NCBI GenBank assembly: GCA_034423015.1
Contig: DAOUJG010000053.1
Location: forward strand, 68,565-132,564
DNA from: Dehalococcoidia bacterium
GTDB lineage: Bacteria; Chloroflexota; Dehalococcoidia; Lucifugimonadales; JAGWBF01
Direction: 5' to 3'
DNA: 64,000 nt
Of this stretch, positions 22,533-57,805 are shown piece after piece (positions within the stretch are counted from its first letter, which is position 1; the number at the start of each line of letters is the position of its first letter). The translations under genes and the position numbers were made by a program. Under the pieces are notes generated by a model. That model worked only from the letters and a program-made list of their open reading frames with translations, was not told the DNA's origin and did no database searches.

Positions 22533-22563
22533 GATCGCATCTAGGCGCCAGACTGTTCACTCA

Positions 22564-23018: not shown

Positions 23019-23026
23019 GCATCAAT

Positions 23027-23042: not shown

Positions 23043-23119
23043 AATTGCGGACAATAGGAGAGGCCATTTTGTGACACCCTCATCCCAGCATGCCCGCCCT
23101 TGGAGCCCCCGTACGAGCC

Positions 23120-24807: not shown

Positions 24808-26219
24808 CGCCCGCCCCCTATCTGCGACCCGGAAATGACATCCAGGAACGCCCCCTCTAGAAACTCCCGGAGGGGACCGAGGCGGACCTGGTCGATGATC
24901 TCGCCGGCGAAGCCTCGGACCAGCAGCGCGCTGGCGGTCTTCCGGTCCAGGCCCCTGCTCATCATGTAGAAGAGGGTATCCTGGTCGATGTGCCCGGCGG
25001 TGGCCCCGTGCCCGCACTTCACGTCGTCGGCGTATATGAGCAGGCTGGGCTTGCTGTTCACCTCGGCGTCGTCGGACAGCAGCAGGTTCTTGTCCGACTG
25101 CTGGGCGTCGACTTTCTGGGCGTCCTTGCGCACCAGCACCGTCCCTCCGAACACGGCCCTGGAGCTGCCGTCCAGGATGCCCTTGTAGTACAGCTTGCTG
25201 GTGGTGTGAGGACTGGCGTGGTCGATGTTGATGAAGTTGTCTATGTGCTCCTTGCCAGAGGTGACGTAGAGGCCGTTGAGGGAGCAGTAGGCGCCGGGGG
25301 CGTCGAGAGTGACCATCAGGTCGTGCCTGGCCAGCGCCGCTCCCCGGGCGACGGACGCGGAGGTGAAAGAGCTGTCCCTGGACTGGTGGACCCGGGTGGC
25401 GCCCACGTGAAAGGCTCCTGCGGCGTTGAGGAGGAGCCGGTAGTGGTCGACCTTGGCGCCGTCCTCCAGCACGATCTCGGTGACAGCGTTGGTCAGGTCG
25501 CGGCCCGGCGACAAGCTGAGGTACGTCTCGACGATGGCGGTCTCGCTGTTCCGTCCGGCGACGATCAGGTTCCTGGGGTGGGACGCGGTCGGCGAGCCGT
25601 TGCCGGAGCTCAGGTGCAGCAGGTGTATGGGCTTGGCGAGGCGTGCCTCCCGCTCCACCGAGAGTACGCCCCCGTCGTCGATGAAGGCGGTGTTCAGGGC
25701 GGTAAAGCCGTCGTCCTCGACCACGGCGTACCGTCCCAGGTGCTCCTCGGCCACCGCCCCGTCGTGTTCCAGGCAACTCGCCAAGCTGGAGATGCGGACA
25801 CCCTCCAGCCCTGGGGACGGGGTGGACAGGGACGGCGAGTAGCGACCGTCCAGGAAGGCCAAGGTAACCCAGCCATCGTCCGTGGGTATCCTGCCGGCGA
25901 GTGCGGCTGGGTCGACCGCTCCAGGGGCGCCGGCCGTCGGATGCCCTTGGGCCGTCGGATGCCCTTGGGCCGGCGGATGCCCTTGGGCCGGCGGATGCCC
26001 TTGGACCGTCGGATGACTGAAGGCGACGGCCGCTATGGGGGCTACATTGGTGTATTTCCACCGCTCGTTGCCCCGGCGAGCCGTGGGGAACCCCAGCTCG
26101 GTGAACCGGGCGAAGGCGTGGGCCCGCGCCCTGGAGAGCCACTCGGGCTCACGGCCCTCCCTGGCCTCCTGCAAGGCGCGGAACTCAGAGACGTATCGGT
26201 CGTCCTGGACCTGGGTCAT
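24804..26219 (-). CDS. sufD: Fe-S cluster assembly protein SufD
   Basis: ATG 26217-26219. The SufD beta-helix core and C-terminal ...YYKGILDG...[26 protein letters not shown] are present. There is a 4-nt overlap with the sufS start. Confidence 0.9.
25932..26017 (-). repeat. in-frame 18-bp tandem repeat (about 4.5 copies) inside sufD
   Basis: The plus-strand unit CGGATGCCCTTGGGCCG(T/G) repeats at 25938, 25956, 25974 and 25992, with a partial fifth copy. It encodes [29 protein letters not shown]. Confidence 0.85.
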
Positions 26220-26235
26220 GTCTTCGTCGCCGCCC

Positions 26236-27006
<771 letters not shown>

Positions 27007-27060
27007 GACGTTACCTCTGGCCGTCCTTCCCCTCACGGGAGGGGCTGGGGCGACGGGACC

Positions 27061-28521
27061 TTACCCGACCGTTCCTTCCAGGCTGACCTTGAGCAGCTGT
27101 GAAGCCTCGGAGGCAAACTCGAAGGGCAGCTCCTTGAAGATGCCCCGGCAGAAACCGTTGATGATCATGTGCTGCGCGTCCTCGGCCCCGATGCCCCGCT
27201 GCTGCAGGTAGAAGAGCTGGTCCTCGCTGACCTTGGACGTGGTGGCCTCGTGCTCCATCTTGGCCGTGGGGTTGCGCACCTCGATGTAGGGCACCGTGTG
27301 GGCCCCGCACCGGTCGCCTATCAGCAGGGAGTCGCACTGGGTGAAGTTGCGGGCGTTGGTGGCAGAGGGCATGATCTTCACCAGGCCCCGGTAGGTGCCG
27401 TTGGCCTCTCCCGCCGAGATGCCCTTGGCGACGATGGTGCTGCGCGTGTTCTTGCCCATGTGCAGCATCTTGGTGCCCGTGTCCGCCTGCTGGTGGTTGT
27501 TGACCAGGGCGACGGAGTAGAACTCGCCCACCGAGTTGTCCCCCTGGAGGATGACGCTTGGGTACTTCCAGGTGATGGCGGACCCCGTCTCCACCTGGGT
27601 CCAGGATATCTTCGAGTTGACCCCCTGGGCCTTGCCCCGCTTGGTGACGAAGTTGTACACGCCGCCCCTGCCCTCTTTGTCGCCGGGGAACCAGTTTTGG
27701 AGGGTGGAGTACTTGATCTCCGCGTTGTCCAGGGCCACCAGCTCCACCACCGCGGCGTGGAGCTGGTGGGTCTTGCGGCTGGGAGCGGTGCAGCCTTCCA
27801 GGTAGCTAACGTAGCTGCCTTCCTCGGCCACGATGAGGGTGCGCTCGAACTGGCCCGAGTCGGCCTGGTTGATCCGGAAGTAGGTCATAAGCTCCAGCGG
27901 ACAGCGGACGCCCTTGGGAATGTAGGCGAAGGAGCCGTCGCTGAACACCGCGGAGTTGAGGGTCGCGAAGAAGTTGTCCGTGTAGGGGACGACGGAGCCC
28001 AGGTACTTCTTCACCAGGTCCGGGTGCTCCTGGATGGCCTCGGTGAAGGAGCAGAAGATCACCCCGTGCTTCTCCAGGGTCTCCTTGTAGGTGGTGGCCA
28101 CGGAGACGCTGTCCAGCACGGCGTCGACGGCGACCCCCGACAGCTTCTTCTGCTCCTCGATGGGTATGCCCAGCTTGTTGAAGGCGGTTATGAGCTCGGG
28201 GTCCACCTCGTCCAGGCTCTTGGGGCCGTCGGCCTTGGACGCCGGGGCCGCGTAGTAGATCATGTCCTGGTAGTCGATGGGCGGGTACTGGACGTTGGCC
28301 CAGGTGGGCTCGCCCCTGTCCATCTTGAGCCAGTGGCGGTAGGCCTTGAGCCGCCAGTCCAGCATCCAGTCAGGCTCGCCCTTCTTGGCGGATATGAACC
28401 TGACGATGTCCTCGTCCAGTCCCCGGGGGGCGGTGTCCGACTCGATGTCGATGACGAAGCCCCACTTGTAGTCCGATTCGTCCAGGCCGCTTTGGCGGGA
28501 GATCACCCTCTGTGAGGTCAT
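27061..28521 (-). CDS. sufB: Fe-S cluster assembly protein SufB
   Basis: 486 aa, colinear with SufB (…[11 protein letters not shown]…, C-terminal [14 protein letters not shown]). Confidence 0.95.
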
Positions 28522-29818: not shown

Positions 29819-30034
29819 ATGAGCAACACCATTTTAGCCGCCGACACGGCGCTGCGGCTGTCGCGCTATCTCGGTACGACCCCGCAGCTCTGGCTCAATC
29901 TTCAGAAGACCTTCGATCTGCGTGTGGCGCAGATAGAGACGGGCAAGCACATCGAGGACCTCGTACAGCTCAGAGGTACTGCGGAGATGCCTGGTAGCTC
30001 GGCCGGCAGCGCTATACCCTACCAGGAGCGGTAG
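29819..30034 (+). pseudogene. N-terminally truncated HigA-like HTH antitoxin remnant
   Basis: Only the second half of the Xre/HigA HTH is present (ADTALRLSRYLGTTPQLWLNLQKTFDLRVAQ). No HigB partner is present, and the 3' end overlaps the convergent thiD. Confidence 0.55.
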
Positions 30035-30819
30035 AAGTGGTTCAGGGGGCCGTGGCCCTGGCCCATGGGGAACGCCCTGGACATGGCCTCGGTGACGTAC
30101 TCCTTGGCCCCGGCCACGGCGTCCACGAGGTCGTGTCCCAGGGCAAGCCCGGCGGCGATGGCCGAGGCGAAGGTGCAGCCGGTGCCGTGGGTGCTGGCGG
30201 TGTCGACCCGCTTCCCCGGGAGCTCCAGGAACCTGCTGCCGTCGTAGTACAGGTCCACCGGGTCACCGGGCAGGTGTCCCCCTTTGACCACCACCGACCG
30301 GGCGCCCATGTCGAGGATGCGCCGGGCCGCCCGCCGGGCGTCCTCCCCCGAGCGGACCTCTATTCCGGTCAACGTCTCCGCCTCGGGGACGTTGGGGGTC
30401 ACGACGGCGGCCAGGGGCAGCAGGGTCGACCTCAGGGCGTCCACCGCCTCCTCCCGCAGCAGCCGGTCGCCGCTCTTGGCGACCATCACGGGGTCCACCA
30501 CCAGCCGGGTCACGCCCAGACGGCGCATCTCGGCGGCCACGGTCTTGATGATGGCGCTGCTGGACAGCATCCCGGTCTTGACGGCGTCGGCGCCCAGGTC
30601 CGTCATGACGGCCTGGACCTGGGCCGCGATCATCTCCACGGGCACCTCGTGGACGCCGGTCACGGCCACCGTGTTCTGGGCGGTGACGGCTGTGACCACC
30701 GAGGTCCCGTACACGCCGAAGGCGGCGAAGGTCTTCAGGTCGGCCTGAATTCCCGCGCCGCCCCCCGAGTCGGACCCGGCGATGGTCATGGCCCTGGGGA
30801 CTCGGTCTACTCCGGCCAC
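30019..30819 (-). CDS. thiD: hydroxymethylpyrimidine / phosphomethylpyrimidine kinase
   Basis: TIAGSDSGGGAGIQADLKTF and GTGCTFASAIAAGLA motifs. The start is ambiguous between GTG 30819 and ATG 30789. Confidence 0.9.
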   Translation of the reverse strand: MAGVDRVPRAMTIAGSDSGGGAGIQADLKTFAAFGVYGTSVVTAVTAQNTVAVTGVHEVPVEMIAAQVQAVMTDLGADAVKTGMLSSSAIIKTVAAEMRRLGVTRLVVDPVMVAKSGDRLLREEAVDALRSTLLPLAAVVTPNVPEAETLTGIEVRSGEDARRAARRILDMGARSVVVKGGHLPGDPVDLYYDGSRFLELPGKRVDTASTHGTGCTFASAIAAGLALGHDLVDAVAGAKEYVTEAMSRAFPMGQGHGPLNHFYRSW

Positions 30820-31463
30820 GCCTCCCCCTTGTAGGCCATCTCCCAGAACATGTACTCGTACCTCAGGGTGGCGAGGAAGGTGCGCTCCAGGTGGGCGCCG
30901 TGGCCGATGCGGGCGCCGTCCAGGGTGCTACGGAGCCACGCCACGAAGTCGCCCAGCTCCTTGCCGGCGTGTATGTCGATCCAGAGCTGGTAGTGCCTGT
31001 TGGCCGGGCGCTTGCCCGCGGCGTCCAGCCGCTGGGCCCAGTCCAGGTAGGGCCACTCGATGCCCAGCAGGGTGGTGAGTATCTCGTGGAAGGAGCCGTC
31101 CCGGGCCACCTGGCGCAGGAACCCGTTCTGGGCGTGGGAGGTGGGCAGGTATTGCAGGTCCGCTACGTCTGCCGCCGACAGTCCCTTCTCGCGGAAGTAG
31201 TCCCGGAACATCCCCTCCTCGGCGCCCAGCGCGCCGTGGACGAAGGCCGCCAGGGGCCGGGCGTGGTCGAAGTCGGGCGCCTTGACGACCCCGGCGCACA
31301 TGAGGGCTATCCAGGGTTTCAGGAACAGGTAGTCCTGCCGGAAGTAGACGTCCCACTTGTCGGCGGGCAGGGTCCCCTCCCCAAGCTCCAACACGAAGGG
31401 GTGGGTGACGGTCCGCTCCCACAGGCCCCCGACGCTGCTCCTGAGGTCGTCGCTCAACGCCAT
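30807..31463 (-). CDS. tenA: TenA-family thiaminase II / aminopyrimidine aminohydrolase
   Basis: ATG 31461-31463. HPFVLELGEGTLPADKWDVYFRQDYLFL is typical of TenA. Confidence 0.85.
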   Translation of the reverse strand: MALSDDLRSSVGGLWERTVTHPFVLELGEGTLPADKWDVYFRQDYLFLKPWIALMCAGVVKAPDFDHARPLAAFVHGALGAEEGMFRDYFREKGLSAADVADLQYLPTSHAQNGFLRQVARDGSFHEILTTLLGIEWPYLDWAQRLDAAGKRPANRHYQLWIDIHAGKELGDFVAWLRSTLDGARIGHGAHLERTFLATLRYEYMFWEMAYKGEAWPE

Positions 31464-31477
31464 ATCGTCACCTCGCC

Positions 31478-32557
31478 CTACTGGGCTCCCTCCACGAACC
31501 TGTTGGTGAAGGCGGCGGCGCCGTCCACGGGCTCGGGCACCTGACCGTTGTCCAGGAGCCACTGGGCGAACCCGGACCATTTCTCCAGGGTCTGCCACCC
31601 CACGGGCTGGTCGGTCTTCCACAGGGGCGCGATGACCCGGATGCCGGGGCGCTCGATGGCCTCGTCGACCTCCTCCTCGGTGCGCTCCAGGAGCACCTCC
31701 ACGGCGGCGTCGGGGTCCGCGGCGGCGTCGGCGTAGCCCTTGACGACGGCGCGGACGAACCTCTGCACAAGGTCCGGGTCCTCCTCAACCATCTTCTCGC
31801 TGGCCACCATCACCAGCTCGTAGTAGTCGGGCACTCCCCACTGCTCCAGGCGCATGACGTCGACGGGGTATCCCTGGTTCTCCATGAGTATGGACTCGTG
31901 GCTGAAGTAGCACCCGATGCAGGCGTCCACCGTGCCGCTGATGAGGCTCTCGGCCAGGTTGAAGCCCACGTTGACCAGCTCCACCTCCTCCAGCCCCCCG
32001 GCCACGCCGTCGTACTTGAGCATGGTGTCCAGCAGGGGCTCGTTGGTGGGTATCCCGGGATATCCGACCTTCCTGCCCGCCAGGTCTGCCGGGCGGGATA
32101 TGCCCGACGCCTTGAGGGACTGGACCGAGTTGAGGGGGTGCTGCACCAGCCCTATCACGGAGACGACGGGCACCCCCTGGGACCGGGCGATGAGGACGTC
32201 CGGCTGGTAGTTGATGCCGAAGTCGTCGGCCCCCGCCGCCACCGTCTGGTTCACCGTGGAGGGGTCCACCGGGGTGTACATCTGCACCTCGAGGCCCTCG
32301 TCGGCGAAGTAGCCCTTCTCCTGGGCCATGTAGAGGCCCGCATGGTTGGCGTTGGGGTACCAGTCCAGGGCCAGCCGGATTGAGACCGGCTCCGGCGTGG
32401 ACGTGGGCGCGGGCGTAGGCACGGTGGTGGCGGTGGGGACCGGCGCCTCCGTGGGAGCGGGCGTCGGCACAGGGGTGGGAGTAGGGGATGCGCAGGCGGC
32501 CGCCGCCAACAGCACCGGTATGATCGCCAGGAGCACCAGCCTGAGCCTTGCTAGCAT
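31478..32557 (-). CDS. NMT1/THI5-like substrate-binding lipoprotein (ThiY-like)
   Basis: ATG 32555-32557. It has lipobox AAAC and a Pro/Thr linker. LALDWYPNANHAGLYMAQEKGYF is typical of the NMT1/THI5 family. Confidence 0.85.
   Translation of the reverse strand: MLARLRLVLLAIIPVLLAAAACASPTPTPVPTPAPTEAPVPTATTVPTPAPTSTPEPVSIRLALDWYPNANHAGLYMAQEKGYFADEGLEVQMYTPVDPSTVNQTVAAGADDFGINYQPDVLIARSQGVPVVSVIGLVQHPLNSVQSLKASGISRPADLAGRKVGYPGIPTNEPLLDTMLKYDGVAGGLEEVELVNVGFNLAESLISGTVDACIGCYFSHESILMENQGYPVDVMRLEQWGVPDYYELVMVASEKMVEEDPDLVQRFVRAVVKGYADAAADPDAAVEVLLERTEEEVDEAIERPGIRVIAPLWKTDQPVGWQTLEKWSGFAQWLLDNGQVPEPVDGAAAFTNRFVEGAQ

Positions 32558-33434: not shown

Positions 33435-33438
<4 letters not shown>
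32602..33438 (-). CDS. ABC transporter permease (NitT/TauT family)
   Basis: ATG 33436-33438 overlaps the ATPase stop by 4 nt. It has multiple TM segments and the EAA-like loop ...DGLRSADPDMVSLLRALGASRRQIF... Confidence 0.85.
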
Positions 33439-34247
<809 letters not shown>

Positions 34248-34253
34248 TGCGTC

Positions 34254-34290
34254 AAAAAGAGGAAGGCCGCCATTCAGGTATGGCGGCCTT
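34254..34290 (-). terminator. intrinsic terminator (expression platform of the TPP riboswitch)
   Basis: On the mRNA, AAGGCCGCCAUaccugaAUGGCGGCCUU (an 11-bp perfect stem) is followed by CCUCUUUUU. It ends 7 nt before the ATPase ATG. Confidence 0.75.
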
Positions 34291-34320
34291 ACCAAACTCA
34301 AAGACTGCACCGGACGCCAA

Positions 34321-34407
34321 TTCCCTACGCTGGCATTACCCAGATCAGGTCGCAAGGGTCGACGGCATCGACGGCCGCCCTCTCAGCCTGGCTAAACCAA
34401 GCTCCCC
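34321..34407 (-). promoter_or_regulatory. TPP (THI-box) riboswitch aptamer
   Basis: The mRNA reads GGGGAGC...GCCAGGCUGAGAGGGC...ACCCUUGCGACCUGAUCUGGGUAAUGCCAGCGUAGGGAA. It contains the conserved CUGAGA, ACCUGAUCUGGnUAAUGCCAGCG and AGGGAA blocks. Confidence 0.9.
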
Positions 34408-35129
34408 TACGGGCCTAGCTGTTCGATTGTGCGCGTATTATAGGTTCCGTGCCGGGAGGTGTCAACAGAGGCCCTTCCCGTCGCGCACAGGTCGCGGAGG
34501 CAGCACTCGTCGCAAAGGGGCGTCTTCTTGCACGTCTCCTTGGCGTGCCGGTCCAGCAGGGCGTGGTACTCGTTGAAGAGGGACGGGTCGTGGGGCAACG
34601 CGTCGTGGAAGAGCCGCTGGTAGTCGCCGTAGAGTCCCCTGTCGGGGGCCAGGCCCATGCGGCCCAGGATGCGGCGGGTGTAAGAGTCGATGACGAAGGA
34701 GGGTCGTCCCGCGGCGTACAGGAGGATGTCGTCGGCCGTCTCGTCGCCGATGCCGTGGATGGAGAGCAGCTCTTCCCGCAGGGCCCCGGTGTCGCCGGAG
34801 AGGAGCGCCTCCAGGTCGCCGTCGTGGCGGTCCCACAGGTGGTCGATGAAGGCCTTCAGCTTTCGCGCCTTGGCGTTGAAGTAGCCCGAGGGCCGCACAA
34901 GCTCCGCCAGGCGCTCCTCGGGGCAGGCCCGGAGGCCGCGAGCCGACATGAGCCCGGCGTCCCTCAGGTTGGCCAGGGCCTTCTCCACGCCCGTCCATGC
35001 CACGGCCTGGGTCAGGATGGCCCCCAGGACCACCTCCAGGGGCGTCTCCGCGGGCCACCAGTGCTGGGGGCCGTAGCGCAGGTACAGGCGTCGGTACGTC
35101 TCCATCAGGACGCCGGTGTCCTCCGCCAT
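34407..35129 (-). CDS. endonuclease III-like HhH-GPD DNA glycosylase family protein
   Basis: It has the HhH region LLSIHGIGDETADDILLY and the 4Fe-4S loop C-x6-C-x2-C-x5-C (CKKTPLCDECCLRDLC). Confidence 0.8.
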   Translation of the reverse strand: MAEDTGVLMETYRRLYLRYGPQHWWPAETPLEVVLGAILTQAVAWTGVEKALANLRDAGLMSARGLRACPEERLAELVRPSGYFNAKARKLKAFIDHLWDRHDGDLEALLSGDTGALREELLSIHGIGDETADDILLYAAGRPSFVIDSYTRRILGRMGLAPDRGLYGDYQRLFHDALPHDPSLFNEYHALLDRHAKETCKKTPLCDECCLRDLCATGRASVDTSRHGTYNTRTIEQLGP

Positions 35130-36816: not shown

Positions 36817-37010
36817 AGCTCCGGCTGGGCGACGTCCTGCGCTTGAAGAAGGCCCACCCCTGCGGCAACGACCTGTGGGAGGTGGTGCGTCTCGGCGCGG
36901 ACATCGGCCTCCGATGCCGGAAGTGCGGGCGCCGTACCCTGCTGGAACGTCCCTACCTGGAGCGGAGGGTGCGCGAGGTGCGCCGGGGCGCGGGGGTGAC
37001 GGGTGAGTAG
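36807..37010 (+). CDS. DUF951-family small protein
   Basis: [31 protein letters not shown] matches my recollection of DUF951. Confidence 0.7.
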
Positions 37011-38646
37011 GTCGGGCGGAAGCCCCGGGAGCCGGGGAGCGGATGGCCCCGGAGCAGAGGGGCTGCCGCCGGTGAAGACTCCCTCCCATATCCCGGTTGA
37101 GCCGGTGTACGGCCCCGACCACCTGGACGGCGGAGACGGCCCGCGGGGACCCGGGGCGCCGGGCGAGTACCCCTTCCTCCGGGGGGTCCACGCCACCGGC
37201 TACCGGGGACGCCGCTGGACCATGCGCATGTTCGCCGGGTACGGCACCGCCGAGGAGACCAACTCCCGGTTCAGGTACCTCCTGGACAACGGGCAGACGG
37301 GGCTCAGCGTGGCCTTCGACATGCCCACCCTCTACGGCTACGACACCGACGCTCCCCAGGCCGCCGGCGAGTTCGGGAAGTGCGGCGTGGCGGTCTCCTC
37401 CCTGGCCGACATGGAGGTGCTGTTCGACGGCATCTCCCTGGACGGCATCACCACCTCCATGACCATCAACGCCCCCGCGGCCATCATCTGGGCCATGTAC
37501 CTGGCCGTGGCCGAGGCGAAAGGGGTGTCCCCGGACCGCCTGGGCGGCACCATCCAGAACGACATCCTGAAGGAGTACACCGCCCAGAACGAGTACATCT
37601 TCCCGCCCGAGCCGTCCATGCGCCTGGTGGTGGACACCGTGGAGTTCGCCGCGGGGCATACCCCCCGGTGGAACCCCATAAGCATCAGCGGCTACCACAT
37701 CCGGGAGGCCGGGGCCACGGCGGTGCAGGAGCTGGCCTTCACCCTGGCCGACGGGTTCGAGTACGTGCGGTGGTGCGTGGACCGGGGGCTGGACGTGGAC
37801 GACTTCGCCCCGCGGCTGAGCTTCTTCTTCAACGTGGACAACTACTTCTTCGAGGAGATAGCCAAGTTCCGGGCTGCCCGGCGGGTCTGGGCCCGGGAGA
37901 TGCGGGACACCTTCGGCGCGAAGCTCCCGCGGTCCTGGTGGATGCGCACCCACGCCCAGACGGCGGGCTGGACCCTCACGGCCCAGCAGCCCGAGAACAA
38001 CGCCGTGAGGGTGGCCCTCCAGGCCCTGGCGGCGGTGCTGGGGGGCACCCAGTCGCTGCATACCAACTCCGTGGACGAGGCGTGGGCGCTGCCGTCGGAG
38101 AAGGCCGCGCTGCTGGCCCTGCGGACCCAGCAGGTGATCGCCCACGAGACGGGAGTCGCCGACACCGTGGACCCCCTGGGCGGCAGCTACTTCCTGGAGT
38201 CGCTGACCGACCAGGTGGAGGCGGGCGCCTACGACTACTTCCGGCGCATCGACGACGTGGGCGGCGTCATCCCGGCCCTGGAGAGCGGCTTCCTGCAGCG
38301 GGAGATCGCCGAAGCCGCCTACAGGTACCAGCGGGAGGCGGACGTGGGGAGAAGGGTGACCGTGGGTGTGAACGAGTACGTAAGCGAGGAGGCCCCGGAC
38401 ATTCCCCTGCTGCGCGTCGACAGGGCGGGCGAGGCCCGGCACCTGGAGAGGCTGAACGACGTGCGGAGGCGGCGGGACGGACGCCAGGCCTCCCTGGCCC
38501 TCCGGTCCCTGGAGCAGGCGGCCAGGGAGTCTCGCAACCTGATGCCTCCCCTGCTGGAGGCGGTGAAGGCCTACGCCACGCTGGGGGAGATGATGGGCGT
38601 GTTTCGCGACGTCTTCGGGGAGTATCAGCCGTCGTGGGGCTACTGA
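37003..38646 (+). CDS. methylmalonyl-CoA mutase family, catalytic (TIM-barrel) subunit without B12-binding domain
   Basis: [39 protein letters not shown]...[10 protein letters not shown] is typical. The ORF ends before any DxHxxG B12 domain. Confidence 0.9.
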
Positions 38647-50247: not shown

Positions 50248-50277
50248 ATTTTAAGCTAAACGCCATGTGGTTGTCAA
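50248..50277 (-). promoter_or_regulatory. sigma70-type promoter of the ilv-leu leader
   Basis: On the minus strand, TTGACA (50277-50272), 18 nt, then TAAAAT (50253-50248). Confidence 0.6.
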
Positions 50278-50339: not shown

Positions 50340-50684
50340 CTAGGGAACGCTTACGACTGTCCAACTCCCGTCGTCGTTCTGGGTGGTAGCGAAGCCGTCG
50401 TTGTCGAAGAAGGGGGCGTCGACACACGTCTCGCTGGACGTAGAGAACGTGCTGCCTTTCTTGACCAAATAGCACCCGCCGCCGTCTCGTTTCACCCAGA
50501 AGGTATCGTTGGCGTCGGTCTGCGCGACCGTACAGCCCTCTCCTACCTGCAATGTCGTACCCGCTTGACAGTCGCCAATGACCGAGTCGGGCCCGCCTCC
50601 GCTGGGGCCGAATGTCCAGTCGCTGGAGCAAGCGACAGTAAGGAGGAGGGCGGCCAGGGCGAACAATGCAATCCTGCGGGTCAT
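50340..50684 (-). CDS. small Cys-containing lipoprotein, function unknown
   Basis: ATG 50682-50684. It has a signal peptide with lipobox LTVAC, four further Cys residues, and lower GC than its neighbours. Confidence 0.55.
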   Translation of the reverse strand: MTRRIALFALAALLLTVACSSDWTFGPSGGGPDSVIGDCQAGTTLQVGEGCTVAQTDANDTFWVKRDGGGCYLVKKGSTFSTSSETCVDAPFFDNDGFATTQNDDGSWTVVSVP

Positions 50685-50709
50685 GACGGGATTGTGCTTG
50701 GCCGGAGGG

Positions 50710-51882
50710 TCATATAACCACGGCGTCGTCAATGGAGGGCCAGCTAAGCTCGAATAGCTGGTCGAAGGCCAGGGCCCAGGGGGGCCTCAGGTATCCCAAC
50801 GCCCGCACGTCCTCGAACCAGGTGCTCAGCGGCGAGTACCAGGTGTACGAGGACCCGCCCGACAGCTTGCAGAGGCGAGTCAACACCGACTCCGACAGGG
50901 TCGCGATGCTCTCCTTGGCCAGCAGCGTGTTGTACAGCGTCTGGGTACCGTTGTCGAACTCGGTCAGGGCGGCTTCGAACGCCTTGTCCACCAGCCACGC
51001 CTCCTGCTCGGCGTGGCTCCACTCCACCCGCTGGTACGCCCGCAGCGCGGAGCCCCGGGCCATCTCACGGGAAAGCCTCTCCCGGACGAACTCCATGGCC
51101 GTGTCCACCACGCCGACGACCACGGAGGTGAACATCATCTGCCCCAGGGGTCCGGCGGCCTGCTGCAGCTCCATCGCGTGGCCCGGCCAGGCCGACCGCA
51201 CCACCGGGAAGTCCGTGAACTCGAAGGCGTGGCTGTTGGTGGACATCATCCCGCGCCCCGCCCACGGCTCCGTCAGCCTCATGCCCGTGGTGCCGTCCCA
51301 CGGCGTGTTCCGCACGTCCATGTAGAACAGGTCGGCCAGAGTGTCTCCCTCGGCCAGGGCCCGGGTTGTCATGAACGACGTGATGCCCGAGCCGCTCCCG
51401 AAGTGCTTCCGCCCGCTCAGGCGGTACTTGTGGGGCTCTCCGGTGGGCCGCACCGCCGAGCGGGTCCTGGCCACGTCGCCGCCGCTCCCGGGCTCGGACA
51501 CGATGGTGCCCCACCAAGCCCCGTCCAGGACCGTATCGAACACCTCCCTGCGCTGCCGTGTCCACTCCTCCATGTACGAGTCCGGCACCTGGGGCACCCT
51601 CCACGAGGCCAGCACGCCGGGGTGCATGGCGCTGACCAGAGAGACCGAGGGGTCGCCGTGGGCCAGTATCCTGAGGGAGGTGCAGATGGGCCGGGCCGAC
51701 TGGGCCAGGCTCTCCCACGTGCCCCCAAGCTCGGCCGGCACCGACATCAGGTGCACGCCCAGGTCCAGGAGCCTGTCGAAGTCCTCCTTGCGGGCCTCCC
51801 TGCGAGACTGGCGCTCCTGCCTCTCGGAGGCGAACTCACGGGCCAGGGCCGGCGCCGCCTCCAGGATCGATTGTATGCTCAT
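50710..51882 (-). CDS. acyl-CoA dehydrogenase-fold flavoprotein (ACAD type 2 / sulfur-related oxidoreductase-like)
   Basis: ATG 51880-51882 overlaps the rhodanese gene stop by 4 nt. The N-terminal DFDRLLDLGVHLMSVPAELGG, the central EPGSGGD...K.F.SGSG and the C-terminal helical domain are colinear with the ACAD fold. Confidence 0.75.
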   Translation of the reverse strand: MSIQSILEAAPALAREFASERQERQSRREARKEDFDRLLDLGVHLMSVPAELGGTWESLAQSARPICTSLRILAHGDPSVSLVSAMHPGVLASWRVPQVPDSYMEEWTRQRREVFDTVLDGAWWGTIVSEPGSGGDVARTRSAVRPTGEPHKYRLSGRKHFGSGSGITSFMTTRALAEGDTLADLFYMDVRNTPWDGTTGMRLTEPWAGRGMMSTNSHAFEFTDFPVVRSAWPGHAMELQQAAGPLGQMMFTSVVVGVVDTAMEFVRERLSREMARGSALRAYQRVEWSHAEQEAWLVDKAFEAALTEFDNGTQTLYNTLLAKESIATLSESVLTRLCKLSGGSSYTWYSPLSTWFEDVRALGYLRPPWALAFDQLFELSWPSIDDAVVI

Positions 51883-53462
51883 TGGACCACCTGATACTTT
51901 CGTCCCAGCTCCTCTTCCCAGCGGAGGTAGTGCATCATGTCGGCGTAGCCCCGGTCGGGGCCCGTGGGCACCACGTCGTTGGGAGGCGCCATCACGCCGG
52001 TGAGGCCCCTCTCCACTGCGAACCCTGCCGCCGTCCACGCGGCCAGGCCTCCGTCCAGCGCCCGCACGTCCCGGTAGCCCATGCCGGCCAGGGTCGCGGC
52101 GGCCAGGCAGGAGGCGACGCCGTCGGAGCAGGTGACTGCCAGCGGGGCACCCTTGTTGGGGGCCACGTCCCCTGCTTGAATCTCCAGCCAGCCCCTGGGG
52201 ACCCAGGTCGACCCCGGCACGTGGCCGGCGGCGAACTCCCGGCTGGTATCCACGAATATGACGGTCCGTTCCGCGTCGTCCTTCAGCTCGGAGGCGCCGG
52301 CCAGACGGACCGTCCTGCGCGCGTCCTCGAGGCCGAAGGGAGGCCGGTCGGGGATGCCCGTCTCCAGGGGAAGCCCGGCCGCGCTCCAGGCGGCCGTCCC
52401 TCCCCGCAGGGCGTGGACGTTGGGATAGCCCATCTGCAGGTACCAGGAGGCAGTCACGGTGGACCGGGCCACCCCGTCACAGGCGAAAACGATGACGCCG
52501 TCCCTGACTCCCACCAGGTCGTCGCTGCGCTGGACCGCCTGTCCCCCGGGGAACCATCGGAAGCCGGGAATGTGCCCGGCCCGGTACTCCTCCATCGTGC
52601 GCACGTCTACCAGGTAGACCGGTCCCTCTTGGGCCTTGGCCATCAGACTCTGGAGCTGCGGGGCGTCGACGTACCTGACCCCGTCCTCCGCGGCCAACCG
52701 GGCCGCGTACTCTTCGGCCGCCGCAAGGCCCTCCCGGGAGGGAGGCGGAAGCCGGACGCGGTCGGCGCCCGTCTCCAGCTCCAGCCCCGCCAGCACCCAG
52801 CCCGAGGTGCCGTTCTTCAGGCCGTATACGTTGGCAAGGCCCATTCGTTGAAGGGCCCGCGTGCCGATGATGCTCCGGGTGCGGCCGGCGCAGTTGACCA
52901 CCACCGTCGTGCCTTCGCCGGCTTCCCTCACGATGTCGGTCACCCGGAGGGCCAGCTCTCCTCCCGGCACGCTGCGGCCGCCGGGTATGCAGAAGCGCGC
53001 GTACTCCTGGGGGGTGCGGGTGTCCAGGATGACCAGCCGCTCCCCGCGCTGCACCCTGGCATGGAGGTCGTCGGCCTCCATCTCGGGCACCTGGTGGACC
53101 ACCTCGACCCGCTCCCCGAAGTCCTTGCTGGGGACGTTCATACCCCACTCGGTGGGGTAGCCGTCGGTGGTCCAGCGGTTGACTCCACCCTCCAGCACCG
53201 AGACGTTCCCGTATCCCATCCGCTCCAGAGTCGACGCCGCCAGCCGGGCCCTCCGGCCGTCGTCGTCGCACACCACCACATGGGCCCCGGGGAAGGGCAC
53301 CAGGTGACCCATCTCAAACTCCAGTAGCCGTCTGGGCAGTGAGGAGAAGCCCGCGATGTGGCTGCTGTTGAACTCGCCGTGCTCCCGCACGTCGACGAGG
53401 GCAACGCCGGCCCCCGAGTCCAGCAGGTCGTTAAGGCCCTTTGACGAGATGCTCGAAGCCAT
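51879..53462 (-). CDS. four-domain rhodanese-like sulfurtransferase
   Basis: Four repeats each carry an active-site loop Cys: VVVCDDDGRRA, VVNCAGRTRS, VFACDGVARS and AVTCSDGVAS. Confidence 0.85.
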   Translation of the reverse strand: MASSISSKGLNDLLDSGAGVALVDVREHGEFNSSHIAGFSSLPRRLLEFEMGHLVPFPGAHVVVCDDDGRRARLAASTLERMGYGNVSVLEGGVNRWTTDGYPTEWGMNVPSKDFGERVEVVHQVPEMEADDLHARVQRGERLVILDTRTPQEYARFCIPGGRSVPGGELALRVTDIVREAGEGTTVVVNCAGRTRSIIGTRALQRMGLANVYGLKNGTSGWVLAGLELETGADRVRLPPPSREGLAAAEEYAARLAAEDGVRYVDAPQLQSLMAKAQEGPVYLVDVRTMEEYRAGHIPGFRWFPGGQAVQRSDDLVGVRDGVIVFACDGVARSTVTASWYLQMGYPNVHALRGGTAAWSAAGLPLETGIPDRPPFGLEDARRTVRLAGASELKDDAERTVIFVDTSREFAAGHVPGSTWVPRGWLEIQAGDVAPNKGAPLAVTCSDGVASCLAAATLAGMGYRDVRALDGGLAAWTAAGFAVERGLTGVMAPPNDVVPTGPDRGYADMMHYLRWEEELGRKYQVVQ

Positions 53463-53483
53463 CGGCGTTGGGTGCCGGGCCGC

Positions 53484-54068
53484 CTATTCGTTGTCCCATT
53501 TCCTGGTGACGAAAGAGGTGACCTCCCCCGTCTCCAGGTTGTAGCGGCACCGGTCCAGCCCCTTCAGGTCCTTGCCGTATACGTGTATCTCGACCGTGGG
53601 GCGGTCCGTGTGGTTGTCCATCTGGTGAATCTCGTCCACCGTGGGTATCAGCAGGGATATCTCCCCTGGGACCAGGGTCGCCTCCCTGTCCCTCTCCAGG
53701 GTGGCGTGCAGCGGGTCCTCCCGGTCGTCCGTCCGCCGGAACCGGGTCTCGCTGAGGGCGTTGTCCATGACGCCGATCATGCCCCAGGTGCGGTGGTCGT
53801 GGGGCGCGGCGTGGTCCCCCGGGCCCCATACCACCGCGGTGACCAGGAGCCCGCTTTCGCCCCGGTAGAGCAGATAGGAGCCGTGGTTGCCGCGGGGCCC
53901 CGTGCCCGACGGCACCCTGTACTCGGCGGGCAGCGCCCCGGGGTTGGCGATGAGCCGTTCCAGGTAAGCCGACCCCCGGTCGAATATCTTGGCCTGATCG
54001 GGCTGGCTGCGTAGGACGTCCTCCATGTCGTGGGCGAACTCCTGCAGTCCGTAGCTGGACGTTGCCAT
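53484..54068 (-). CDS. cysteine-dioxygenase-like cupin (thiol dioxygenase family)
   Basis: ATG 54066-54068. The metal-ligand pattern is PHDH...(~50 aa)...IHQMDN in a cupin-sized 194-aa protein. Confidence 0.75.
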   Translation of the reverse strand: MATSSYGLQEFAHDMEDVLRSQPDQAKIFDRGSAYLERLIANPGALPAEYRVPSGTGPRGNHGSYLLYRGESGLLVTAVVWGPGDHAAPHDHRTWGMIGVMDNALSETRFRRTDDREDPLHATLERDREATLVPGEISLLIPTVDEIHQMDNHTDRPTVEIHVYGKDLKGLDRCRYNLETGEVTSFVTRKWDNE

Positions 54069-54139
54069 GGTCCCACCTCCCGTCGGCGTGGCTGGTAGGT
54101 ACAGATTATACTCTTCTCGGGGTGCGGCGGGGAAGATGG

Positions 54140-55474
54140 TCATGGGGCAGGGGAGGACCGGGCCGCCGGCGGCAGGGCCTGCTCCCAGTCGGGCATCAGG
54201 AACCGGGATGTGGTGGGCAGGAGCAGGATGGACAGGACGCCCAGCAGGCTGGTGGCGAAGGAAAGGGCGACGATGCCCTCGTAGCCCGTCAGGTCCCAGA
54301 TCACGCCTCCGCCCCAGGCGCCGGCGGCCATCCCGAGGCCCGACCCCAGCATCTGCCAGCCGTAGGCGGTGCCGATGGGCGCGTTGCCGAAGTACTGGCG
54401 GTTGATTATGGGGAAGGCGCTCATCTCCCCCCCGAAGCCCACGCCGTAGACGACGGCGAACAGGTAGAAGAACCAGGCGTCGTGGGCCACGAACAGCATC
54501 AGCACAGGGGCGGTCTGCAGGAAGAAGCAGAGCCCCATGACTCCCTTGCTGCCCGTGCGGTCGGCCACGATGGGGACGACGAACCGGGTGGTGGTGCTCA
54601 CGGCGAAGAGGGTGGCCACGAGGCCGGCTGCCACCCCTTCGGCGACGCCCCGCTCGATGGCCATGGCCACCAGGAACACCAGCACGATGTTGTGGGCCAC
54701 GCACCCCCAGAAATGGATGCCGATGAGGTTCCAGAAGGCGTTCTTGCGCTGGGCCTGCCGCAGAAACACCTTGGTCCTGGTCTTGGCCACGTCTCCCTGG
54801 TAGACCCGCCGGATGGGCTGGTCCTCCGAGGCGCCCAGGGGCCTGAGGCCCAGCTCCCCGGGCTCGTTGTGGAACCTGCTGATCACGGCCAGCAGCAGCG
54901 CCCCGCCGGCTATGCCCGGGCCCCAGAAGGTCCAGGGCAGACCCAGGCGGTCCAGGAGCACCACCACCAGGGGAATGGCGATGACCGTGCCCAGCCCCTG
55001 GGAGGCCTGGAGGGCCCCCAGGCCCACGCCGAGGTTCTTGTCGAACCAGCTGGATACGGCGGCCATGAGGGGCACGCCGAATATGGCCATCGACCCGCTG
55101 AGGATTACGCCGAAGTAGAGGTAGAACTGCCACAGGTGCTCCATGGTGCCGGTGAGCATCATGCCGCAGACGAACAGGAGGGCGCCCAGCAGCATGGTGC
55201 GCCGAATGCCGTACCGGTCCCCAAGCCAGCCCGCCACCGGTCCGAAGAGCCCGGAGAATATCCACTGCAGGGAGAAGGCCAGCCCGATGGCGCCGTAGCT
55301 CCAGCCGAACCCCCGCTGGGCGTCCGCCAGGAAGGGAACGAACACGCTGGCGGCCATGCGCACGGCGGAGCTGGTGAGGCGCAGCAGCACAGCCATCCCC
55401 ACGATGACCCACGCGTAGTGGACCCGGCGCCCGGCCAGGGTGAAGCTGGAGGGACTCAAGTCGAACAGCGGCAT
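54140..55474 (-). CDS. MFS transporter
   Basis: 444 aa with about 12 hydrophobic segments and the MFS loop motif GWLGDRYGIRR. Confidence 0.9.
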   Translation of the reverse strand: MPLFDLSPSSFTLAGRRVHYAWVIVGMAVLLRLTSSAVRMAASVFVPFLADAQRGFGWSYGAIGLAFSLQWIFSGLFGPVAGWLGDRYGIRRTMLLGALLFVCGMMLTGTMEHLWQFYLYFGVILSGSMAIFGVPLMAAVSSWFDKNLGVGLGALQASQGLGTVIAIPLVVVLLDRLGLPWTFWGPGIAGGALLLAVISRFHNEPGELGLRPLGASEDQPIRRVYQGDVAKTRTKVFLRQAQRKNAFWNLIGIHFWGCVAHNIVLVFLVAMAIERGVAEGVAAGLVATLFAVSTTTRFVVPIVADRTGSKGVMGLCFFLQTAPVLMLFVAHDAWFFYLFAVVYGVGFGGEMSAFPIINRQYFGNAPIGTAYGWQMLGSGLGMAAGAWGGGVIWDLTGYEGIVALSFATSLLGVLSILLLPTTSRFLMPDWEQALPPAARSSPAP

Positions 55475-55498: not shown

Positions 55499-55507
55499 CC
55501 CATTGTA
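55499..55507 (-). promoter_or_regulatory. -10 element TACAATGGG upstream of the MFS gene
   Basis: The minus strand reads TACAAT plus GGG, 24 nt before ATG 55474. Confidence 0.4.
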
Positions 55508-55601
55508 CACGAACCGGCCGTGCCGGGTGCTGCCGCACACGCGTGGCGTCGTCGCCGGCAGAATGCTAGCATATCGTCAACAGTCTGTTTTGGAGCGGAC
55601 T

Positions 55602-55820
55602 TTGGGGAGCTTACACGTACGACGTTTGGATGATGGAGTGGTCGAACGGCTAAAGCGCCGCGCCGCCGCGAACAATCGTTCCCTGGAGAGCGAGGCCCGG
55701 CACATCCTGGAGCGGGCCTCGGAGGACGGCATGCCGGAGAAGGCCAGGAGATTCGGGGCCCTGGTCAAGAGGTTGCGGAGGGGGACCGGGAGCCGTTCTC
55801 AGACCCCTCCCACGTTCTGA
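55602..55820 (+). CDS. ribbon-helix-helix (FitA/VapB-like) antitoxin
   Basis: A TTG start at 55602 is inferred. SLHVRRLDDGVVERLKRRAAANNRSLESEARHILERA is the typical RHH antitoxin N-terminus. The palindrome ATGCTAGCAT (55563-55572) lies upstream. Confidence 0.6.
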   Translation: MGSLHVRRLDDGVVERLKRRAAANNRSLESEARHILERASEDGMPEKARRFGALVKRLRRGTGSRSQTPPTF

Positions 55821-55854
55821 TCAGGGAAGACCGGGATAGCGGCCACAGCCCTGC

Positions 55855-55929
55855 GTGATGCGCCTGGTCGTGGACGCCGTCGTCGTCAAGTGCCTCGTCG
55901 AAGAGGAATACTCATCCCCCAAGACGGCA
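55855..55929 (+). pseudogene. PIN-domain (VapC-like) toxin remnant, N-terminal ~25 codons only
   Basis: MMRLVVDAVVVKCLVEEEYS resembles a VapC N-terminus with its first acidic residue. The similarity is lost after about 25 codons, at the hairpin. Confidence 0.3.
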
Positions 55930-55955
55930 CATGGCGCCCCGATTGGGGCGCCATG
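55930..55955. terminator. perfect 11-bp hairpin between convergent remnants
   Basis: CATGGCGCCCC-GATT-GGGGCGCCATG. There is no clear U tract on either side. Confidence 0.4.
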
Positions 55956-55989
55956 CTCTCTCAGGTTCAGTTGTGGTCCCGGGGGGGGG

Positions 55990-56505
55990 TCAGTCCGCGG
56001 GAGCGGGGGCGGCATGCTCGTTGGCCGAGCCGTTCCTGGTCCAGGAGTGCTCGTCGGCCTGCCACCTGTAGCCGGCCCCTCGGAGGACCTGCCCGATGGT
56101 CTTGGCGCTGACCTTGGGCGTCCCCTCGGGAGCGTTGCGCAGGGCCTCCTGGAGGCTGGAGAGAGACCAGGCGGGCGACCGGTCGATCTCCCGCTCCACC
56201 TCCCGGAGGATTAGCTGCTTCTCGGCGTCGCCGTACATCCTGTGCCGGCCGGCTCCAGGGAGGGTGTCCAGGGCAGCCATGCCCCGCTCGTGAAACCGCT
56301 GCACCAGGGCGGCTACGCCGCTGCTGCTCCGCATCCTGGCCGTGCGGGCGGCCTGGGTGAACGACTGGCCCTCGTCCACGGCCAGCAATGCCCGGGCCCG
56401 TCGAATCCGTTCCACCCGTTCGACTCCGGACGCGGCTATACGCATCATCTCCGTCTTCTCGGACTCCGTGAGCTTGCGCAGAGGCTGCTTAGGCTGCCTT
56501 CCCAT
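55990..56505 (-). mobile_element. IS630-family transposase fragment (N-terminal HTH domains only)
   Basis: 171 aa. ...RARALLAVDEGQSFTQAARTARMRSSSGVAALVQRFHERG...WSLSSLQEAL...VSAKTIGQVLRGAGYRW is typical of the IS630/Tc1 N-terminus. The DDE catalytic domain is absent. Confidence 0.65.
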
Positions 56506-57372: not shown

Positions 57373-57431
57373 CCGCTACCGGAGCTCGACGGCCCGGTCG
57401 CCCCCGCTACCGGAGCTCGACGGCCCGGTCG
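57373..57431. repeat. tandem duplication (28/28 nt identical, period 31) spanning the 3' end and stop codon of the CMD-family gene
   Basis: CCGCTACCGGAGCTCGACGGCCCGGTCG occurs at 57373-57400 and again at 57404-57431. Confidence 0.9.
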
Positions 57432-57805
57432 ATGGAAGGCAGGTCGGGGCGGAAGGTGGCCCTCCACGCCTCCAGGCCGTTGGCCCTGGACACGTTGCCC
57501 ACCCAGCCGCCCACCAGCATGATGGCTTCCAACAGCTCCTCCGGGGAGGCGCCGGCCCTGTTGGCCGCGTGCATGTGGACCTTCAGGTGCTCCACCGTAT
57601 CCTTCTCGGCTATGCAGGCCACCACCAGCAGCAGCTCCTTGGTCTTCCGGTCCAGCAGGGACTCGCCCAGGTACTCGGCGTACACCCTCTTGTTAAGCTC
57701 CTTGAGCCCTTCCAGGTCTATCTCGGCCAGGAAGTCGTGAAGGCCGTAGCGGAACCCCCGGAGCCTGGTGGTCTCCTCCAGTACTCGCTCTTTCTCGGTG
57801 GACAT
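57407..57805 (-). CDS. carboxymuconolactone decarboxylase (AhpD-like) family protein
   Basis: 132 aa. LDRKTKELLLVVACIAEKDTVEHLKVHMHAA is typical of the CMD domain. Confidence 0.8.
   Translation of the reverse strand: MSTEKERVLEETTRLRGFRYGLHDFLAEIDLEGLKELNKRVYAEYLGESLLDRKTKELLLVVACIAEKDTVEHLKVHMHAANRAGASPEELLEAIMLVGGWVGNVSRANGLEAWRATFRPDLPSIDRAVELR

Follow-up and report, generated by a model that had tools for sequence, protein, structure and literature searches.

In Pseudomonas, the 3-mercaptopropionate dioxygenase gene 3mdo and the rhodanese gene tst downstream of it form one transcription unit (PMC12947264). The mercaptosuccinate dioxygenase (MSDO) clusters of Variovorax paradoxus B4 and Advenella mimigardefordensis hold a gene with a rhodanese domain, and in V. 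paradoxus the rhodanese and a molybdopterin oxidoreductase have been proposed to remove sulfite downstream of the dioxygenase (PMC5373536). A. mimigardefordensis also possesses the act-acd-mdo-ahpD cluster for 3,3'-dithiodipropionate and 3-mercaptopropionate (PMC5373536), and flavin monooxygenases of group D oxidise organosulfur compounds, methanesulfinate included (PMC13352529). The pairing of such a cupin with a rhodanese is already known in Proteobacteria (PMC12947264, PMC5373536). Here a related locus is described from an uncultured, SAR202-like Dehalococcoidia bacterium (Chloroflexota; contig DAOUJG010000053.1, positions 68,565 to 132,564), where five linked minus-strand genes at 50340-55474 of the 64-kb stretch that was analysed, hereafter the window, encode a major facilitator superfamily (MFS) carrier, a cupin of the cysteine dioxygenase (CDO) family, a four-domain rhodanese, a flavoprotein with the fold of acyl-CoA dehydrogenases (ACADs) and a small lipoprotein-like product.

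On sequence grounds, the cupin and the four-domain rhodanese constitute a conserved module in Chloroflexota and, with other thiol-dioxygenase subtypes, in Proteobacteria. The operon as a whole is tentatively read, with a likelihood placed slightly short of even, as an oxidation pathway for a small carboxylate-bearing organic thiol, in which a sulfinate would be processed without coenzyme A (CoA) and sulfite released. The closest relatives of the window are Dehalococcoidia metagenome-assembled genomes (MAGs); the gene content of relatives was taken from tblastn with defined queries and from public gene calls, and genes in the middle of the window were identified with Pfam on selected open reading frames (ORFs).

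Cupin, rhodanese and flavoprotein

The cupin scores marginally above the Pfam cut-off for CDO_I (PF05995; 23.4 against 23.0 bits), and its matches in the PDB (4QMA, 3USS and 6XB9; E 4e-21 to 1.5e-18; 29-34% identity) are solved bacterial enzymes that include the 3-mercaptopropionate dioxygenases (3MDO) Pa3MDO and Av3MDO. A sequence-only reading of the window had noted the PHDH...H pattern of cysteine and 3-mercaptopropionate dioxygenases, and an alignment with three solved enzymes and 121 relatives, each at least 61% identical, confirmed it. The ligands are H90, H92 and H148, aligned with His90, His92 and His142 of Av3MDO, and they are invariant in the 121 relatives together with H162, Y164 and R173. 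By this ligand set the cupin is predicted to be a non-heme Fe(II) thiol dioxygenase. In Av3MDO the substrate carboxylate is bound by Arg168 (PMC8050391), to which Arg173 corresponds, and the substrate of the window cupin is probably a carboxylate-bearing thiol.

The residues proposed earlier for telling a CDO from a 3MDO gave neither answer by alignment. The Gln marker (Av3MDO Gln63) is replaced by Gly/Ala63-Ser64, and the marker of the Arg-type cysteine dioxygenases, at position 61 in Av numbering (PMC8050391), is replaced by His62. The outer-sphere Ser-His-Tyr triad is incomplete, His162 and Tyr164 being kept and Ser being replaced by an invariant Glu160. Asn61-His62 is invariant where 3MDO has (R/Y)-Y, and Asn61, His62, His86 and Asp151 are all invariant among the relatives and different in the solved enzymes. 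The cupin is accordingly assigned by alignment to a distinct Asn-His...Glu-His-Tyr subtype that is non-Gln and non-Arg and fits under neither 3MDO nor CDO.

The rhodanese contains four PF00581 stretches (E 2.8e-59), and its loop cysteines C65, C191, C328 and C445 are kept in 100, 100, 100 and 97% of 73 Chloroflexota relatives, in all of which the catalytic loop of domain 2, CAGRTRS, is conserved. The protein aligns over about 500 residues (E 5e-77) with PDB 1YT8, a 539-residue 'thiosulfate sulfurtransferase' that we take to be PA2603 of Pseudomonas. Full-length homologues with 39-42% identity are found on proteobacterial megaplasmids and chromids. In 1YT8 and in these homologues the Cys is limited to domain 2, sometimes with a second one in domain 4; at the Cys positions of domains 1 and 3 of the window protein they have Asp. 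The earlier remark that four active-site cysteines are unusual is upheld by this comparison; the four-domain architecture is itself already known and solved, and the all-Cys state appears from the alignments to be a feature of the Chloroflexota lineage. The genomic company of the proteobacterial homologues varies: the Ralstonia solanacearum gene has a 'cysteine dioxygenase' gene and metC as neighbours, in Azospirillum it directly follows a Gln-type CDO-family gene, and in Shinella it is found among luciferase-like monooxygenase (LLM), SDR and TauE sulfite-exporter genes.

The ACAD-fold flavoprotein matches the middle and C-terminal Pfam domains of ACADs below threshold (31.8 against 33.3 and 20.6 against 22.4). 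Its best NCBIfam match, to SfnB (TIGR04022), reaches 73.3 bits against a cut-off of 430.9 and covers residues 4-268 only, and the 3-sulfinopropanoyl-CoA desulfinase model NF042439 gives 25.3 bits against a cut-off of 600. The AF2 model (pLDDT 81, pTM 0.83) consists of helical, beta and helical domains. Foldseek aligned it with ACAD-fold structures at TM 0.7-0.78 and ranked DnmZ, KijD3, MsuC, TdsC and DszC on top, in a search that did not separate the monooxygenase, dehydrogenase and desulfinase classes. Among solved proteins, a sequence search placed 5GJ7/5Z8T (a flavin-containing monooxygenase according to its deposition), a Brucella ACAD, MsuC, DnmZ and KijD3 closest, with 40-51 bits, and gave the CoA-dependent desulfinase 5AF7 32 bits.

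The ACAD segment RDxR...YEGT aligns with EDVRALGYLRPP, and the position of MCAD Glu376 is occupied by Arg366 (within LRPPW), which is kept in at least 97% of 81 sequences of the family. The IVD-type Glu position corresponds in a manual alignment to Gly247, invariant in the 35-sequence alignment A1. Because both catalytic Glu positions are replaced, the protein is predicted not to be an acyl-CoA dehydrogenase, and a beta-oxidation identity, raised at the outset as the outcome that would overturn the sequence-only reading, was rejected; SfnB is the family that matches best, and MsuC, DszC and the nitrososynthases lead the structural neighbours. Orthology to 3-sulfinopropanoyl-CoA desulfinase, SfnB or DszC is likewise ruled out by the model scores. 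In the N-terminal domain, His87 aligns with a His of MsuC and 5GJ7. Structural and sequence comparisons lean slightly towards the group D flavin monooxygenases, a class assignment that computation does not fix, and the protein is best placed in an uncharacterised family. This family is seemingly restricted to Dehalococcoidia, apart from a few Entotheonellaceae/Tectomicrobia and one MAG labelled Deltaproteobacteria, and no homologues were detected in 72,556 plasmid records.

Gene neighbourhoods and operon structure

Scanning metagenomes with the cupin alignment yielded 80 loci. The four-domain rhodanese follows the cupin in 26 of the 34 loci with at least 4 kb downstream, and a sulfite-dehydrogenase-like gene is likewise present in 26 of these 34. 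Among the 21 loci with about 8 kb downstream, an MFS carrier is encoded in 13, ACD2 (a second ACAD paralogue) in two and the ACAD-fold gene in one, and it is this absence of the ACAD-fold gene from 20 of 21 long loci that suggests that the dioxygenase does not need it. The common marine form of the cluster runs cupin, rhodanese, sulfite-dehydrogenase-like gene, small cupin, second sulfite-dehydrogenase-like gene and MFS carrier. Since a sulfite-dehydrogenase-like molybdoenzyme and an MFS carrier follow the cupin and rhodanese in most Chloroflexota relatives, sulfite is the likely product. The sequence-only reading of the operon as an organosulfur system is strengthened by the position of the sulfite-dehydrogenase-like gene between the rhodanese and ACAD-fold genes in relatives. 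On marine SAR202-type contigs (e.g. L133:10348-13068) the two sulfite-dehydrogenase-like paralogues have 397 and 369 aa, with the 116-aa small cupin between them; the marine contigs with both paralogues downstream of the cupin and rhodanese have no ACAD-fold gene.

A second survey took the ACAD-fold family alignment as query against one genome per GTDB species, and gene contexts were derived by tblastn and ORF clustering. Its 80 loci are nearly all from Dehalococcoidia, with one from Entotheonellaceae. Of the 80, 42 contain the cupin and 42 the rhodanese, and in 42 a sulfite-dehydrogenase-like gene follows the rhodanese. The product of this gene, of about 400 aa, carries PF00174 and PF03404, has its best matches, below cut-offs, in SoxC, SorA and SorT, and shows by eye no twin-arginine signal. 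The most frequent context (about 40 loci, one shallow clade) starts with an oppositely oriented LLM gene, followed by cupin, rhodanese and the ~400-aa protein; next comes the ACAD-fold gene, in some loci after one to three Uma2 genes, and then MFS2, an MFS paralogue roughly 40% identical to the window carrier. In a second context (13 loci) ACD2 lies directly upstream of the ACAD-fold gene and is itself preceded by an MFS gene 64% identical to the window carrier or by a cupin, and in a third (8-10 loci) an LLM gene is directly upstream of the ACAD-fold gene. The luciferase-like gene that is conserved next to the cupin among relatives belongs to the F420 (Mer-like) type and does not resemble SsuD. 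The window order MFS-cupin-rhodanese-ACAD recurs in the close relatives L002-L004 and, with the addition of a sulfite-dehydrogenase-like gene, in L005. On a neighbour-joining tree of the ACAD-fold proteins, a cupin within 10 kb is found in at least four separate lineages, with cupin-free lineages interspersed.

Several further features accompany these loci. In a basal clade (L076, L078 and L079) the ACAD-fold gene is preceded, at a distance of 12 nt, by a gene for a 108-aa single-domain rhodanese (L078:9654-11152) and is followed by a cyclase gene and a Ham1-like gene. The Uma2-family (PF05685) genes, one to three in number, lie between the sulfite-dehydrogenase-like and ACAD-fold genes in L039-L075, loci of the most frequent context (e.g. 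L066:9295-9990); 51 copies were counted in 29 loci, and two more are present on the window's own scaffold. An 85-aa ORF with the CxxC-like motif VDCAECDW and no Pfam match is conserved on the opposite strand between the rhodanese and sulfite-dehydrogenase-like genes (L038:8035-8292, minus strand, and 29 other loci).

One syntenic slot is flanked by PIG-L-like and membrane-protein genes and, at its other end, by cyclase and Ham1-like genes; in L133, L078 and L029 it holds different subsets of these families. The locus is read as a sulfur gene island in which cupin, rhodanese and sulfite dehydrogenase form the core and ACAD-fold genes are optional. The co-conservation expected by the sequence-only reading thus holds strongly for the cupin and rhodanese, but the ACAD-fold gene is an accessory, the lipoprotein-like ORF is not conserved and the MFS partner differs from locus to locus.

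Within the window, the five ORFs agree with an independent public gene call of the same five products (Table 1) on the ENA metagenome scaffold of which the window is part (ERZ23495130 NGUY21-1 scaffold_427), in keeping with the earlier description of the gene set and its spacing, which from 5' to 3' is 71 nt, 21 nt, an ATGA overlap at 51879-51882 and 25 nt. The overlap is also present in L002-L004, and the rhodanese and ACAD-fold genes are predicted to be translationally coupled through it. The operon had been placed behind a -10 element; the element TACAATGGG is present, but a sigma-70 consensus scan found no -35 partner for it, and a full sigma-70 promoter at this site was discarded. It is retained as a possible operon promoter. 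A perfect TATAAT hexamer in the spacer between the MFS and cupin genes, separated from the cupin ATG by a strong Shine-Dalgarno sequence (GGAGGTGG), is a possible internal promoter; it too has no -35 element, and the scan made no call there. Downstream of the small ORF lie a TTGACA-18-TAAAAT promoter-like site and a T-box leader, so the ilv genes are taken to be a separate unit and the operon to end at the small ORF. The terminator-like hairpin of the T-box leader is situated immediately 5' of ilvB, and ilvBNC-leuA-leuC is apparently under tRNA-sensing control.

Table 1. Positions in the window of the operon genes and of nearby features
Feature	Position	Strand	Size	Basis or remark
MFS carrier gene	54140..55474	-	444 aa	PF07690
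CDO-family cupin gene	53484..54068	-	194 aa	PF05995
Four-domain rhodanese gene	51879..53462	-	527 aa	four PF00581 stretches
ACAD-fold flavoprotein gene	50710..51882	-	390 aa	sub-threshold Pfam ACAD domains and fold
Small Cys-rich secreted/lipoprotein-like ORF	50340..50684	-	114 aa	no family
-10-like element TACAATGGG	55499..55507	-		sequence read; MFS ATG 27 nt further downstream
Perfect TATAAT hexamer	54105..54110	-		in 71-nt MFS-cupin spacer
TTGACA-18-TAAAAT promoter-like site	50248-50277	-		consensus scan
T-box leader RF00230	50016-50230	-		119 bits; upstream of ilvB
Carboxymuconolactone-decarboxylase (CMD)/AhpD-like gene	57407..57805	-	132 aa	PF02627 in public gene call

The MFS carrier matches PF07690 (MFS_1) with 135 bits (E 3e-39) and falls below the equivalog cut-offs of its best NCBIfam matches, the SfMCT lactate carrier (144 against 320 bits) and OFA (90 against 375). 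It is presumably of the oxalate/formate and monocarboxylate-transporter type and would move a small organic anion. Its 64%-identical orthologues stand beside ACD2-ACD pairs in five other loci. The small ORF shows by eye a signal peptide and a lipobox-like Cys in MTRRIALFALAALLLTVAC, as its earlier description as a lipoprotein implied, but it has no family match in Pfam or NCBIfam. Its homologue was found in L003 only, L002 and L004 having other DNA at this place although their ACAD-fold proteins are 97-98% identical. The ORF is probably co-transcribed with the operon and probably a passenger; its membership in the system is unsupported, as it is kept in one of three near-identical relatives.

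Three remnants that look like mobile-element and toxin-antitoxin debris (55572-56505) separate the operon from a comF-like gene. They are an ORF resembling ribbon-helix-helix antitoxins (...LHVRRLDDGVVERLKRRAAANNRSLESEARHILERA...), a short ORF that begins like the N-terminus of a PIN domain and, on the other strand, a 171-aa HTH_29/HTH_32 transposase-like ORF. The chromosomal site of the window-type cluster, beside these transposase-like and toxin-antitoxin remnants, differs from that of its relatives, and this is consistent with the MFS-cupin-rhodanese-ACAD cluster having moved as one unit. The CMD/AhpD-like gene 2 kb upstream of the operon has a 36%-identical homologue at the cluster edge in L061, L067, L072 and L074 and is possibly a loose associate.

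Elsewhere in the window, a thiamine pyrophosphate (TPP) riboswitch (34305-34418, minus strand) lies upstream of an ABC-transporter ATPase gene (33435-34355) that is followed by TenA and ThiD genes (30019-31622), by appearance a thiamine salvage and uptake unit. The public gene call splits an AhpC/TSA gene (~4278-4933, minus strand) into products of 158 and 45 aa and a FAD_binding_3 gene (~16557-17708, plus strand) into products of 335 and 44 aa; frameshifts, pseudogenes or recoded stop codons are possible. An Fe-S cluster assembly region (~20300-28521) contains cysteine desulfurase, sufB, sufC and sufD genes, and a HicAB toxin-antitoxin pair between two NifU_N genes.

Proposed pathway and alternative explanations

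In the CoA-free pathway favoured here, the MFS carrier would move an anionic substrate or product, and the Fe(II) cupin would add O2 to the thiol to give a sulfinate. The ACAD-fold flavoprotein would most likely act on the free sulfinate in the manner of MsuC, either by further S-oxygenation or by C-S cleavage to sulfite. The four-Cys rhodanese may handle the sulfur product, joining sulfite with sulfane sulfur to form thiosulfate or converting the sulfinate into a thiosulfonate. In most relatives, sulfite would then be converted to sulfate by the cytoplasmic sulfite-dehydrogenase-like molybdoenzyme, whose gene lies between those for the rhodanese and the flavoprotein; the window lineage appears to have lost this gene.

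Several observations weigh against this pathway. The functions of the cupin subtype and of the ACAD-fold family are predictions from sequence and fold; the departure of the cupin from 3MDO at the Gln marker and the triad Ser makes any assignment of its substrate tentative, and true ACADs and the desulfinase 5AF7 score almost as well in Foldseek as the monooxygenases do. In P. protegens, deletion of tst did not significantly change 3-mercaptopropionate levels (PMC12947264). The ACAD-fold gene is rare in the long cupin loci of metagenomes, as described above, and a partner flavin reductase was found neither in the window nor among the conserved neighbouring genes. A search of the 64-kb window for a sulfite oxidase, a second ACAD, an LLM, a DAO homologue and a CoA-transferase found none, returning only a housekeeping Ham1 paralogue and the CMD gene, and the window also lacks a homologue of the sulfite-dehydrogenase-like gene. 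The description of the operon as a self-contained pathway is not supported, both a sulfite oxidase and a flavin reductase being absent from the window. A variant in which the luciferase-like gene would lead from sulfinate through sulfonate to sulfite is weakened, the gene being of the F420/Mer-like type and missing from the window.

The missing catalytic Glu, which a non-dehydrogenase would also show, and the clear structural match to 5AF7 (TM 0.72) suit a CoA-dependent route, in which the cupin would form 3-sulfinopropionate or an analogue, a housekeeping succinyl-CoA synthetase or a distant CoA-transferase would activate it and the ACAD-fold protein, as a non-redox sulfinyl-CoA desulfinase, would yield an acyl-CoA and sulfite. 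Such a route has its counterpart in the 3-mercaptopropionate catabolism of Advenella and Variovorax. In Advenella, mdo adjoins the ACAD-fold desulfinase gene acd and an AhpD-core gene and SucCD is encoded elsewhere (PMC5373536); the CMD/AhpD-like gene near the window operon, a methylmalonyl-CoA mutase encoded in the window at 37003-38646 and a gene resembling family III CoA-transferases, which 13 relatives carry within a few kb, would fit it as well. It is nevertheless unlikely, given that NF042439 scores 25 bits against 600, that the monooxygenases outrank 5AF7 whether sequence or fold is searched and that the relatives' CoA-transferase apparently belongs to a separate operon with thiolase-like genes. 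The sequence-only reading had set the operon apart from the 3-mercaptopropionate route for lack of a CoA-transferase or ligase, and indeed no CoA-activating enzyme was found in the window; the argument is weaker than it seemed, however, because activation in Advenella is performed by the housekeeping SucCD (PMC5373536). A different alternative confines function to the cupin and rhodanese and regards the ACAD-fold, MFS and lipoprotein-like genes as neighbours by genome history that serve unrelated metabolism. The ACAD-fold gene does occur elsewhere without a cupin, with an ACAD paralogue or directly after an LLM gene, besides being missing from nearly all long cupin loci; moreover, one shallow clade supplies most of the co-location, the flanking PIG-L-like, Ham1-like and cyclase genes are conserved by descent, and the lipoprotein-like ORF is not conserved. 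Several features speak against such a history, however: the ATGA overlap that couples the rhodanese and ACAD-fold genes in the window and L002-L004, the proximity of cupin and ACAD-fold genes in at least four separate lineages with differing gene orders, the single-domain rhodanese directly before the ACAD-fold gene in the basal clade, and the persistence of the four genes together at a new chromosomal site in the window lineage. This explanation is judged improbable.

The order of the reactions and the nature of the sulfur species could also be otherwise. In one alternative the flavoprotein would come first: as an S-oxygenase or C-S-cleaving monooxygenase similar to DszC or Dms, it would take an imported thioether or sulfoxide and supply the cupin with its thiol substrate. 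The group D ACAD-fold enzymes DszC and TdsC oxidise thioethers and sulfoxides (PMC13352529), and the 64%-identical MFS orthologue travels with cupin-free ACD2-ACD pairs, which suggests that carrier and flavoprotein share a substrate. The flavoprotein is, however, last in the gene order, a reductase partner was not found, and the invariant Arg residues, Arg366 included, would suit an anionic sulfinate better than a neutral thioether; this sequence of events is very unlikely. It is also decidedly unlikely, though slightly less so, that the system handles sulfane sulfur, with the cupin and rhodanese acting on persulfides or the rhodanese loading sulfane sulfur onto a sulfinate to give a thiosulfonate. 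Sulfinates are acceptors in classical rhodanese chemistry, three thiol dioxygenase subtypes pair with one rhodanese family across phyla, the four conserved Cys of the Chloroflexota rhodanese would suit a sulfur relay, and sulfite-oxidising enzymes are encoded adjacently. Bacterial persulfide dioxygenases are often fused to rhodanese modules (PMC12934615); the known ones, however, have a metallo-beta-lactamase fold rather than a cupin fold. The characterised 3MDO and MSDO turn thiols into sulfinates (PMC8050391, PMC5373536), and the conserved Arg173 speaks for a thiol-carboxylate chelate. An extension that joins these elements, a CoA-independent sulfinate and sulfane-sulfur machine in which the four-Cys rhodanese would relay sulfur to or from the cupin sulfinate and the Arg366 flavoprotein would represent a new class of desulfinase or sulfinate oxygenase, is a speculative proposal of low probability.

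Comparison with known systems

SAR202-type Dehalococcoidia abound in the ocean, and a role in sulfur cycling has been proposed for them. Thiol dioxygenase-rhodanese pairs are widespread. The conserved cluster, made up of genes for cupin, rhodanese, sulfite dehydrogenase and carrier and optionally for the flavoprotein, is a concrete candidate route from organic thiols to sulfate in uncultured bacteria. If the CoA-independent machine were true, abundant SAR202-type bacteria would have a means, not recognised before, of turning dissolved organic thiols into sulfite and sulfate. Neither of two SAR202 genome papers mentions a thiol dioxygenase or this cluster (the words 'dioxygenase', 'thiol' and 'cupin' are absent from PMC5864207); they treat rhodanese or sulfite oxidation in a general way, and PMC5395668 names only a sulfite oxidase (PMC5864207, PMC5395668). 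The Glu-triad dioxygenase, the all-Cys four-domain rhodanese and the ACAD-fold family with Arg in place of the base are tractable biochemical targets.

The Pseudomonas 3mdo-tst pair (PA2602-PA2603; P. protegens c14110-c14100) has the same layout as the window, a CDO-family dioxygenase followed by a four-domain rhodanese of about 530 aa. The Fe ligands, the His-Tyr pair and the carboxylate-binding Arg of the Pa and Av 3MDO are common to the window cupin, and the domain 2 loop of 1YT8 is identical to that of the window rhodanese. Unlike in Pseudomonas, however, the cupin has Gly/Ala-Ser for Gln and Glu for the triad Ser, at only 29-34% identity, the rhodanese carries a Cys in every domain, including domains 1 and 3, in which 1YT8 shows Asp, and ACAD-fold and MFS genes are added. 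The MSDO clusters, whose layout is also that of the Ralstonia solanacearum locus, combine a thiol dioxygenase with a rhodanese-domain protein and, in V. paradoxus, a molybdopterin oxidoreductase (PMC5373536); the Chloroflexota relatives have dioxygenase, rhodanese and a sulfite-dehydrogenase-like gene in a row. The match of the window cupin to MSDO is weaker (8VNI, E 7e-9), the cystathionine beta-lyase of those clusters is absent from the window operon, and they have no ACAD-fold gene whereas the window has no molybdoenzyme.

As in the Advenella act-acd-mdo-ahpD cluster, a dioxygenase gene in the window stands beside an ACAD-fold gene that is predicted not to encode a dehydrogenase, with an AhpD-like gene near; the Advenella enzyme releases sulfite (PMC5373536). 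In contrast to that cluster, the window has a rhodanese but no CoA-transferase, and its flavoprotein and the desulfinase are not orthologous. With the group D enzymes MsuC, DszC/TdsC and SfnB the flavoprotein shares the absence of the catalytic Glu and, with MsuC and 5GJ7, the N-terminal-domain His, but its family scores lie far under the cut-offs and the C-terminal His of HNPP/HDP is replaced by an invariant Arg (LRPPW). The window system shares parts with three known clusters and equals none of them; the absence of CoA enzymes is among the differences. What appears to be new, judging from the alignments, is the Glu-His-Tyr subtype of the dioxygenase, the four-domain rhodanese with Cys in every domain and an ACAD-fold family with Arg at the position of the catalytic base.

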